From the NCBI GenBank assembly GCA_038884755.1, contig JAWABJ010000001.1, forward strand, positions 96,001-160,000: a stretch of DNA of 64,000 bases, in the 5' to 3' direction. The position numbers were made by a program. The DNA comes from Candidatus Norongarragalinales archaeon (GTDB lineage: Archaea > Micrarchaeota > Micrarchaeia > Norongarragalinales > Norongarragalinaceae). Every line of letters starts with the position of its first letter. The first letter of the stretch is position 1. Positions 45,001 to 48,000 of this stretch are shown here, in pieces.

Positions 45001-48000
45001 TCCTGCGAGCTTCGGGAGTTCGCGACCTGAGTTCGAATCTCAGATCCCCCATCAAACGCAATCACATTTTTTCGATGTCTTGGAGCGAGACTTTCGGCGA
45101 AGGGGTTTTCGCGGGAAGGCCGTAGGAAGGAGGCTGACGTTTTTTGTACAAGTAGTACGCTCCTCCCGCGATGGCCAAAACCACGAGAAGCAACACGCCG
45201 ATTGTCACGAAGTCGATTTCGTTTTCCCGAGGCTGGAGGTTTTGCACGTTGGCCGCTATTACCGTGGCGTTTTGCCCTATTCCCGCCATGTCGACAATTT
45301 CGATGTTGCCGTTGCCCAACGCGCTTTCGCCTTCGCGCAAGGCGATTTTCACGTTTTGCAGTTGCGTGTTGTAGTCGGCAATTCTCCCGTCGGTCGGCCC
45401 GAAGCGCTGGGAAGCGTTTTGAATCGCTTGCTCGGCGTTTTGGATTGAAACCCTGGCGTCAAGGTATTGGGTGAGTGCGGTTTTGTACCTCTCGACTTTT
45501 TGAGCGAGGGCTTGCGACTGGTTTTCGAACTCGGGCCTTCCCACAGCGTTGCGCAGGTTCTCAGCCTCGGTCTTCAACTTTTTCAAATCAATCCCGTACG
45601 CGCTGAAGTTTCGGGCCAGGGCGTCGGCTTGGCTCGCCAAATCGCCGGCAGTCGCGCTCGCACCTGTTTTAATCTTGTTTTGCCTCGCTTCTTGCGCCCG
45701 TTCTTTCGTCCTGTTTTTCACGGTTTCCTTCAACGCAGAAGGAGAGTCAAACTTGCTGGGCCCCACTAAAGCGAGGACAGCGTCTATTTTCGCGGTGACG
45801 TTGGCGTCGGAATCGCACTTGCTGTCCACGCCTTTCACCCTGTACGCGTAAGGGTTGCTGCTAGTCGCATTCAAGTACGCTTCGTAGAATTCTGGATACT
45901 GCGCTTTTACTGGCGCAAAGCTTTCTCGAATGACTTTTGCAGAAGAGAGAGCTTTTTCCTCGTCGCTTCCCGAAGATTCCAGCGCGTCAACCCCCTGCTT
46001 CACTATATTCCAGTCTTTTTCGAAAGCCGCGCTGTTGTTGTGGATGAACCAAATCGCCCCCCACTCCTTTGGAAAGTGGAATCGGTCGTAGCGGACGTTG
46101 AACTTGACGTAAACCCCGCCGCGGGTGAGGTTGAAAGAAAACCACTTCGAGCCGGTCAGGCACTTGTCTATCGCGTCCCTCGTAGAGTTGAACTCGGAAA
46201 CGACTTGCGGGATTATTTCCTGCAGGTCTTCGAAAGCCTGTTCCGAATAAGCGTCCATGGCCTTTTCTATTTCGCTGGGATTCTGCAAAACGAGAAATTC
46301 TTCCCCGCTTTTCTTCAAAACCGCGGTTTCCACGCCGTTGACTAAAACCATGTAGTGCCCGTCGAACTCTACCGCCGAAGCTTGTTCGCCCTCGCGGGCA
46401 AAGAAAGACGCTTCCTCTTCGACCGTAAACGCGAAAGCGCTTGCCGCCAAAGCCAGAAGCGCCAGAAGCGGAAAAGCGTTCTTTGGGGTTGAAACCATGA
46501 AATTTTAAAGCATAAAAACCATTTAAATGCTGTTGTCCCGCTGTAGCTCAATCTGGCAGAGCACCTGACTGTAGCCTGCGATTTTTCTTTAAAAAAAGAA
46601 AAATCGAGTAAAGAAAAACGAAATTTCACGTGTGGAAATCAGGGTGTTGCCAGTTCAAACAACCTTTCTTTCGCGAAAGAAACGTTGACGAAAGAAAGGC
46701 CTGAAAGTCTGGCCAGCGGGACTTTCTAATTCACAAGAAATAAAAGCGTTAGAAAAAAAGTTTTTAAGCTGCCTTGGTAGTGTAGTGGTCTAGCATGCCA
46801 GCCTGTCACGCTGGCGACCCGGGTTCGAATTGAACAGCGCTGCGCGCTGTAACTCTTCGCTCGTCGAAGAACTCGCGAATATCCCGGCCAAGGCGCTTCT
46901 TTTTTTTCGTTACTTTCGCCTTAAACAAAAAATTTAAATGCCGTTTTTCGTTTTCTTCTTCAAAAGGTAGTGTTTGGATGGAAGCAAAATTCAAGATTCT
47001 CGCGGTTTGGGTTGCAATCGCGCTTTTGGTTTACTTTATCGGCGTAAGCATGCCTGCGCAGCAGCAGACGGTTTTTTACGTGAGCAGCTTCGGTTTTCTC
47101 GCGCTGCTTACGCTTTGCTTGGTTTTGCTAATCCCCCCGATAGTGCGCTGGCAAAACAACTCGTTCACGCGCTTTCTTCTAGTGAATAGGCGTTGGGTTG
47201 GGCTTTCGGCGTTCTTGTTCGCTTTGACTCACATTGCGCTCGTATACCACTTTTTCTTCGCTTGGGACATTCTCAAGCCGTTGAGCCTTCCCAACAGCCT
47301 TTTCCTTAATCTCGGTGCAGTAGCATTCCTGATTCTAGCGCTAATGGCCGCGACATCCAACGACTTTTCGGTCAGCGCGCTGGGCAAGAATTGGAAGCGC
47401 TTGCACTTGTTCGTGTACTTGGCGTTCGCGCTGGTTTTGATTCACGGGTTCAACATAGGCCTGGTTTACTTTAAAGAGCAGGCAGTGCAAATCTCTATAG
47501 CCGTGCTGGTGGTTCTCATAGCGCTTTTCAAGACGGGCATCGTGAAAATCGGCAATTAAAGCGATATGCTATTAATCGCTTTTTGCTTTACGACTTTAGA
47601 GGGATGTCTTGAGGTTTCGCGCGCAAGCTGCTTTCGAGTACATGATTCTCCTTGCGGGAGTGCTTTTGATTGCGGTTATTGGTCTTGTCGTCTTCCGCAG
47701 TTTTATCTTTGCCCCCGCTTCTCAAAGTGTTGAAGCTACTAACTGCTGGGCTCGGCTTGCTAAAGATTCCAATTGTTATATCGGCGCGCAGTGGAATGCT
47801 TGCGGTCAAGTAGACCGCTTTAAATACGTTTTGCCCGACGGTAGTTTTTGCGCTTCTTTGCAAACGCCGCAAGGCTGTGTAGGCAATCTTCCTGCAAACA
47901 AGTTGTGGTGTGGGGAGGTTGGAATTCAAATTCAAGTTCAAGGCTCTCCTTCGCCGTCTGTTTTACCTTCAGCTTCGCCTAGCGTTTCTCCAAGCGCGTC

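Follow-up and report, generated by a model that had tools for sequence, protein, structure and literature searches.

Our analysis did reveal two interrupted tRNA genes lying one after the other on the plus strand of the window, as we call the whole 64,000-nt stretch of the archaeal contig that was analysed. Specifically, tRNA-Tyr(GTA) occupies 46537..46720, with exons at 46537-46574, 46638-46659 and 46708-46720, the discriminator base at 46721, and two introns. The first of these, at position 37/38, is 63 nt long (46575..46637) and has a relaxed bulge-helix-bulge (BHB) motif with wobble pairs in the central helix. It encloses on the same strand a type A element (46579..46618) in which a U-rich/A-rich hairpin is followed by a linker and a mirror purine tail, and whose subfamily recurs 3′ of tRNA-Leu(GAG) and in 16S and 23S rRNA insertions. 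The second intron, at position 59/60, is 48 nt long (46660..46707), shows the central helix TTCA/TGAA and contains another plus-strand type A element (46660..46699), which begins at the first base of the intron. This intron shares 83% identity with the 59/60 intron of tRNA-Arg(TCG). Downstream follows tRNA-Asp(GTC) at 46771..46894, with exons at 46771-46829 and 46882-46894 and a single 59/60 intron of 52 nt (46830..46881) that has a strict BHB and is without the triplex-coded element. The Asp intron is homologous to the 59/60 intron of tRNA-Ser(GCT) in the congener G001, and its inner hairpin is common to the Val(CAC) intron of its own genome.

ARAGORN reported only Pro(CGG) on the 64-kb window and missed Tyr and Asp, while Rfam scored Asp at 25.9 bits, below the cut-off of 29, and listed no match for Tyr; after splicing by script, ARAGORN called both Tyr(GTA) and Asp(GTC). 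Three further elements were identified in the window. A triplex-coded element of the GG..CC linker type on the minus strand (20637..20676) begins at the stop codon of a gene of that same strand and is not found at the orthologous place in G001. A module C copy on the plus strand (20545..20592), likewise not in G001, consists of a purine/pyrimidine hairpin and a conserved pyrimidine tail. A minus-strand type A element (57436..57474) separates two genes of its own strand and precedes a start codon by about 15 nt. Rfam returned no family above cut-off for the repeat, neither in window positions 20400-21000 nor in any of 20 loci taken from the 80 viral ones.

A T-loop search combined with a cloverleaf parser recovered, genome-wide, all thirteen tRNA genes that the first-pass annotation had described as hidden by T-loop introns. 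Twelve of them do have a 59/60 intron; the exception, Cys(GCA), has a 37/38 intron of 116 nt only and is seen by ARAGORN with option -i, which names it Gly. The 59/60 introns measure 19-189 nt instead of the proposed 50-190 nt, the estimate that about 30 of 45 tRNA genes are interrupted is corrected to 32 of 46, and Pro(TGG), not located by that annotation, was found with a 53/54 intron on the minus strand of contig C1 (656201-656331). The resulting set of 46 genes covers the full anticodon set, with Ile(TAT) replacing Ile(CAT). Its 41 introns are 16-189 nt long and are distributed over position 37/38 (24), position 59/60 (13), the D-arm region (3) and position 53/54 (1); further interrupted genes are Val(CAC) with a 59/60 intron, Ile(TAT) with two introns and the initiator Met with a 9/10 intron. 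A default ARAGORN run on the genome listed 16 genes and got 14 of the 46 correct. Once the introns are removed it calls a cloverleaf for all 46, one with a one-base error from a hand-set junction. Junctions were set by hand in seven of the 46 genes (two unparsed regions, five mis-spliced or shifted), and several hand-set 37/38 junctions are uncertain by at least one base, Thr(TGT) being one base short there.

Our search demanded a 4-bp BHB helix at the T-loop and the parser three of four pairs, so that covariation alone provides an independent test of the junctions. The central helix is fully paired at all 13 of the 59/60 junctions and covaries with the T-loop, the T-loop/intron-end combinations being TTCA/TGAA, TTCG/CGAA, TCCG/CGGA and TCCA/TGGA. 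Eleven of these 13 junctions are fully Watson-Crick, against 3.6 with permuted intron ends, and eleven was reached in none of 20,000 permutations. Over all 41 introns, at the junctions used, 24 have four of four pairs, 14 have three and three have two; several 37/38 junctions are among the weaker ones, with two to three pairs. Judging from its sequence, the genome encodes a predicted broad-specificity epsilon2-type splicing endonuclease: a 388-aa ORF (EndA) has two PF01974 hits and matches PDB 4fz2, which we take to be the ARMAN-2 epsilon2 enzyme, over residues 14-388 (E 2e-125). Junction structure and enzyme gene together suggest that these are BHB-intron tRNA genes whose transcripts would be cut and spliced by way of the epsilon2 endonuclease.

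That 59/60 introns and a broad-specificity endonuclease are already in print, as the first-pass annotation acknowledged, is borne out by ARMAN-2 (Candidatus Micrarchaeum acidiphilum), for which the accessible text of Fujishima 2011 (PMC3239211) describes 59/60 and 53/54 introns, interruption of 56% of the tRNA genes and an epsilon2 EndA. According to the same text the likeness also includes two-intron genes, relaxed hBH junctions, an intron-bearing Ile(UAU) and a three-unit endonuclease. The genome studied here differs in that 70% (32/46) of its tRNA genes are interrupted, in its introns of up to 189 nt, compared with ARMAN-2 examples of 13 and 25 nt in that text and a range of 11-129 nt in the accessible part of a 2014 review (PMC4090602), and in its repeat-built intron interiors, which the accessible ARMAN-2 text (PMC3239211) does not mention.

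The most frequent building block of these interiors is the type A module of about 40 nt, in which a U-rich and an A-rich arm enclose a short loop above a short lower stem, the latter frequently mismatched (C-C or C-T); a linker of 6-15 nt then leads to a third A-rich tract, the mirror of the purine arm. It occurs in 22 of the 41 introns, beginning within the first bases of the intron; by the patterns used, 28 carry a module of any type and 13, Asp among these, carry none. The mirror relation was evaluated on 227 distinct copies (44 from the own genome and 183 from loci of relatives) collected by a finder that was blind to mirror or direct order and for which an AAGAA tail was obligatory. Inner A-runs were equal in 184 copies and outer runs in 138 (29% each by permutation), whereas direct-repeat pairings of the runs (57 and 51 of 227; 28% and 27% expected) stayed at chance level. 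The full mirror was present in 168 copies against 35.5 expected and, among copies with a second G in the arm, in 50 of 65 against 10.5; the full direct pattern, with 35 against 17, is also above chance. As the copies are related, the permutation significance of all these counts is overstated.

The tracts are made of T/A layers with one or two C-G-G layers and fall outside the G/C-rich TM consensus. Class II triplex-pattern hits number 28 in the non-coding DNA of the genome and zero in three shuffles. Among 552 hairpin views, 254 have an A tail and one a T tail, which fits a pyrimidine triplex of the opposite strand, and the counts of G-T versus A-C (wobble versus mismatch) favour neither strand. 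The observed covariation identifies type A as an A/T-rich candidate member of the class of intrastrand-triplex repeats, which would fold into three strands. Type B, with its GG..CC linker, is the same architecture inverted and located at intron 3′ ends; five introns have it by pattern, to which Arg(GCG) can be added, where the copy has an insertion in the loop. What the first-pass annotation had called module 1 is thus real and common to several introns but not distinct, being the type A architecture on the other strand with its mirror third tract overlooked. In three introns (Ser(TGA), Arg(TCT) and Cys) type A is followed by an inverted B. Module C, a hairpin with a constant pyrimidine tail, was found in five introns and in several copies outside. 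The layout of module C fits class III, but a covarying triplex was not adopted for it, since by eye the tail is constant while the arms vary.

The earlier observation that module copies also occur outside tRNA genes proved correct, and they are present in rRNA, RNase P RNA, trailers, a leader and beside protein genes; the modules are therefore not mobile BHB introns themselves, as had been assumed. The repeat lies 3′ of Leu(GAG), three Ala and two Arg genes, and an inverted copy ends 3 nt ahead of the 5′ end of tRNA-Arg(CCT). It fills insertions of 45-65 nt in the 16S and 23S rRNA genes, three of the 23S insertions having a 4-bp Watson-Crick junction helix and the 16S junction being ambiguous; one rRNA insertion lies beyond the Rfam match, and its position is presumed from the consensus. 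One copy, with no convincing BHB, is part of RNase P RNA, and others abut stop or start codons. Of the 227 copies, 191 have tRNA, rRNA or RNase P sequence no more than 260 nt away, 159 of them in Y-R-R′ sense and 32 inverted, an orientation bias of about 5:1 on the transcript. Among copies with a measurable exon, 111 of the 138 in sense orientation and 13 of the 16 inverted ones have the hairpin base at most 12 nt away from it, so that the exon-boundary rule holds equally on both strands. No fixed target word for insertion was apparent by eye.

The family of the type A module is neither young nor confined to one species. A fixed pattern matched 45 of 68 genomes of the order, with 425 matches against 13 for a backwards control, and a looser pattern matched 95 of 301 genomes of the phylum in a patchy manner, with 14/14 in the own family and 1/75 and 2/54 in two others. 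Among DPANN families, f13 and f14 have almost no copies of the element, while f1, f10 and f18 have many. Among the 80 T-loop-anchored GTDB loci listed, 59/60 introns were called in 17/22 from Micrarchaeota, 6/15 from Aenigmatarchaeota, 10/13 from Woese-, Pace- and Nanoarchaeota, 14/19 from other archaea, 1/1 from Thermoplasmata and 1/11 with bacterial labels. The mirror was seen in 56 of the 62 archaeal tailed rows among these loci (39% expected), and the type A module in T-loop introns of Aenigm-, Woese- and Pacearchaeota. In IMG/VR the mirror was found in 38 of 48 distinct linkers (35% expected) from 80 of at least 121 matches, and none of these 80 viral loci has a tRNA beside it; of metagenome and viral loci together, 41 of 128 adjoin a tRNA.

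The claim of the first-pass annotation that sequence has spread among introns of different tRNAs was confirmed. At a global identity of 80% or more, eight of the 41 introns can be matched with one from a different tRNA type; at 70% or more the number is 20 and at 90% or more none, while 20 rounds of shuffling gave on average 0, 0.1 and 0, respectively. The pairs at 80% or more are Tyr/Arg(TCG), His/Leu(CAA), Pro(TGG)/Ser(GGA) and Arg(TCT)/Cys; the 53/54 intron of Pro(TGG) and the 59/60 intron of Ser(GGA), with 84% identity, sit at different positions in host genes with the same T-stem. Furthermore, a composite of modules C and B is shared by Met and Arg(CCG) in genome G002 and by Arg(TCT) and Arg(GCG) in the studied genome. 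Congeners differ in single introns. G003 and G004 have neither 59/60 intron of the Tyr/Asp locus, all complete Asp orthologues among those listed likewise are without the Asp intron, and G001 has another type A subfamily in both Tyr introns. The Asp intron including both its ends is found in Ser(GCT) of G001, whereas Ser(GCT) of the studied genome has no intron there; the Asp and Ser(GCT) host genes have 10 bases before and five after the insertion site in common. T-loop C55 as a co-converted intron flank was rejected, because C55 is also present without a T-loop intron.

These observations are of the kind described for Thermoproteales: cross-isotype intron families in one genome, and the relocation of a whole intron, of which Asp/Ser(GCT) is one clear case. 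The footprints seem to fit copying at the DNA level aided by short homology. The accessible part of a 2026 preprint (10.64898/2026.10.13.758758) gives 28.3% cross-isotype introns at 80% for Thermoproteales and 1.5% for Asgard; 19.5% of the introns in the studied genome reach that level by a metric that is similar, not identical. At 90% the value is 0% here, in contrast to 12.5% in Thermoproteales (Fujishima 2010, as cited in the accessible parts of PMC4033280, PMC4090602 and the preprint). A further difference is that the shared unit is here mostly a sub-intron repeat that also exists outside introns.

The closest parallel in architecture is offered by the bacterial BoxC/PIT/TMECO class II repeats, which the accessible text of Holder 2015 (PMC4666352; Hoyne 2000 as cited there) describes as multi-copy sequences with a pyrimidine arm, a purine arm and a mirror third strand and with no function assigned. 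As far as that text goes, common to both are three covarying tracts, multiple copies, two linker types in inverted A+B pairs, reported there for the type A and B motifs of E. coli, and instability between close relatives; the type A strand has the class II layout and the opposite strand class IV. By the same text, the repeats differ in that TMECO is G/C-rich and intergenic without strand bias, whereas the repeat studied here is A/T-rich and mostly intronic or at processing boundaries, with the bias of about 5:1. The word 'tRNA' is absent from the main text of Holder 2015. Our literature search, which was short on subscription journals and supplements, turned up no study of triplex-coded repeats within archaeal introns; among the supplements, the ITxF lists (covering archaea sequenced by 2014, according to the accessible text of PMC4666352) and the ARMAN-2 tRNA table could bear on the question.

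We consider it probable, on balance, that the interrupted genes are ordinary BHB-intron tRNAs, most introns of which are built on a dispersed triplex-class repeat copied as single-stranded DNA, the introns then moving between genes. The A/T-rich repeat of about 40 nt would act and be copied as single-stranded DNA and would insert, singly or in inverted A+B pairs, such that the base of the hairpin meets the boundary of an exon or a processing site. Copies would persist wherever the transcript is freed of them by EndA, RNase P or RNase Z. The resulting introns could then move or swap between tRNA genes, a movement that the relatives do show, probably through DNA-level copying via short shared exon flanks. 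The fold, the acting molecule (DNA or RNA) and the route of copying are what we infer; action as DNA is suggested by the strand-symmetric placement, the T-poor third tract, the BoxC parallel and the assertion in Holder 2015 (accessible text of PMC4666352) that RNA does not form purine-motif triplexes. Against the explanation as a whole stand the enzyme negatives given below, the 13 introns without a module, the excess of the direct pattern, the wobble counts that favour neither strand and the 159 of 191 copies in one transcript orientation, which are more simply explained by a role in RNA.

More tentatively, new tRNA and rRNA introns throughout the DPANN archaea might have this repeat as their donor and vehicle. 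It would then be a REPIN-like DNA cassette, non-autonomous and recognised by a three-stranded fold, which an enzyme would write beside exon boundaries of structured RNAs on either strand, with broad splicing rendering the insertions harmless; we regard this as possible, at somewhat less than even chances. REP/REPIN-RAYT systems and BIMEs consist of short palindromic repeats, single or in inverted doublets, that are gained and lost between relatives and have a cognate Y1 transposase. The studied repeat resembles them in its short palindromes, singles or inverted doublets and turnover between relatives; it differs in the mirror third tract, in stable-RNA exon boundaries as target and in having no co-occurring Y1 gene.

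The 93%-complete genome contains no gene for a Y1 transposase, reverse transcriptase, DUF559, GIY-YIG or MTES_1575 protein, and all five were rejected as partners. Y1 genes occur in 8 of the 45 genomes of the order that carry the element and in 10 of the 23 that do not (cross-counted by hand) and thus do not track the A-rich repeat, and none of the four Y1 loci examined is flanked by repeats. MTES_1575 does not track the A-rich repeat either, and reverse transcriptase occurs in three of the 68 genomes, one of them element-positive. DUF559 (22/68) and GIY-YIG (25/68, mostly proteins of 500 or more aa) are found in no genome of the own genus. The 44 proteins neighbouring A-rich copies belong to housekeeping families or have no match, with no nuclease or transposase among them. 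As to element-gene-element cassettes, 10 convergent pairs at about five distinct places were among those listed, none with a nuclease. A promoter/terminator scan with a bacterial consensus found none. DUF559 genes are known to be associated with BoxC-type motifs. Among 20 DUF559 loci, the lone strong stand-alone gene (genome G022) is flanked on both sides by G-rich motifs of the BoxC type in inverted orientation, their hairpin bases pointing outward as in the A+B introns; this locus looks bacterial in origin, and the A-rich class is not involved.

An unlikely but serious alternative sees in the repeat an RNA element that the host maintains at processing sites. Released fragments would have at their 5′ end a hairpin whose A-rich tail folds back onto the stem, and at their 3′ end an ENE-like U-A-U triple helix; the element would affect processing, stability or transcription pausing and spread by ordinary gene conversion. 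The one-sided orientation speaks for such an element, as does the position of 147 of 178 copies by tRNA, rRNA or RNase P genes when only pattern-drawn loci (the first few hits per genome) are counted, together with the RNase P RNA copy. Loop and tail furthermore show a weak complementarity (2.71 vs 2.18; 38-41% vs 25% at single positions). MALAT1 and other ENE RNAs have a U-tract, stem, U-tract and A-tract at the RNA 3′ end, and the antisense copy 3 nt before tRNA-Arg(CCT) is laid out similarly; this layout applies to the 32 antisense copies only and not to the other 159. The commoner orientation would be a purine motif, said in the accessible text of PMC4666352 not to form in RNA. In many close relatives the same tRNAs moreover lack the element or the intron, the pattern is absent from 23 of 68 genomes of the order, and none of the 80 viral copies examined (of at least 121) lies by a tRNA, all of which speaks against such an element.

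The original proposal, namely a young family of complete BHB introns that transpose within this species and leave the modules as mere footprints, appears improbable. The cross-isotype pairs at 80% or more and the Asp/Ser(GCT) case with both intron ends would be expected from it, and whole-intron moves remain true for a subset of the introns. Its age and range are contradicted by the lack of any pair at 90%, by the same linkers in distant families and phyla, with 45 of 68 order genomes, other DPANN phyla and viral contigs carrying the module, and by BHB-less copies in trailers, a leader and intergenic DNA. Least probable, by a small margin, is a mutational by-product: slippage and fold-back in A/T runs would independently produce the hairpins and the A-rich tails, and low complexity would pass for homology and mirror symmetry, as the simple A/T tracts and the tandemly expanded tail in the Leu(TAA) intron might suggest. 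Against this, slippage and template switching yield direct or inverted copies and not mirrors, mirror exceeds direct by 168 to 35 of 227, the backwards control gave 13 matches against 425, and no shuffled intron of 41 pairs at 80%.

The intron layer, the transposition of introns in Thermoproteales and the bacterial BoxC repeats are already known. To these our analysis adds a census of all 46 genes, a measure of cross-isotype similarity, one case of a whole intron moved between congeners, a boundary rule that is symmetric for the two strands, a range extending past Micrarchaeota and a negative enzyme screen. The entry of intron DNA into archaeal tRNA genes is, according to the accessible part of the 2026 preprint (10.64898/2026.10.13.758758), the central open problem. 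With a covarying repeat in most introns there is now a concrete candidate source for new tRNA introns in tiny archaea, and the placement rule together with congeners differing in single introns makes the question of intron origin testable. Two unexplained things, the triplex repeats of the BoxC type and the gain of introns in archaea, are thereby joined. If the repeat is indeed donor and vehicle of these introns, archaeal intron DNA would have its first identified source and the BoxC class its first role.

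A GC-rich hairpin on the plus strand of the window (20484-20530), with a TATA-like box ahead of it, is a candidate RNA that is kept with compensating changes in the congener G001 and matched no Rfam family in window 20400-21000. In the source genome it is followed by module C (a purine/pyrimidine hairpin with conserved pyrimidine tail) and module B (a triplex-coded repeat with GG..CC linker), both of which are absent there in G001. An archaeal SRP RNA was not found in the source genome.

Further observations concern tRNA genes on its contigs (C1-C3). T-loop position 55 is C, not T, in six genes (starting at C1 300731, 415130 and 656829, C2 34893 and 66432, and C3 59472), intron-bearing and intron-less alike, and likewise in the Asp tRNA of congeners G003 and G004. 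The pair A32-T38, a feature of bacterial Ala(GGC), is present in tRNA-Ala(GGC) (C1 247634-247844, minus strand). The initiator tRNA-Met carries an intron at position 9/10 (C2 34977-35013, minus strand) whose junction helix uses acceptor-stem bases. A group I intron match (51.8 bits) lies between 16S rRNA and tRNA-Ala(TGC) (locus L033 16237-16453, minus strand; C1 about 685235-685451). tRNA-Ile(TAT) is present with two introns (C1 13055-13218, minus strand), and the census of tRNA genes in the source genome found no Ile(CAT), which parallels the Ile(UAU) of ARMAN-2 (PMC3239211).

Two tyrosine integrase genes (C1 432611-433108 and 568632-569135) immediately follow Leu(CAA) and Leu(TAA), and both tRNA genes contain introns, that of Leu(TAA) (127 nt; C1 567955-568081) being lengthened by tandem repeats of the linker-and-tail unit. 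At loci L578 and L579, A-rich triplex-type copies immediately adjoin genes for NikA/MobC mobilisation proteins, which make up 2 of the 44 neighbouring proteins that were scanned. A stand-alone DUF559 gene (locus L387, G022:C25), in a stretch that looks bacterial, is flanked on both sides by inverted G-rich BoxC-type triplex motifs.
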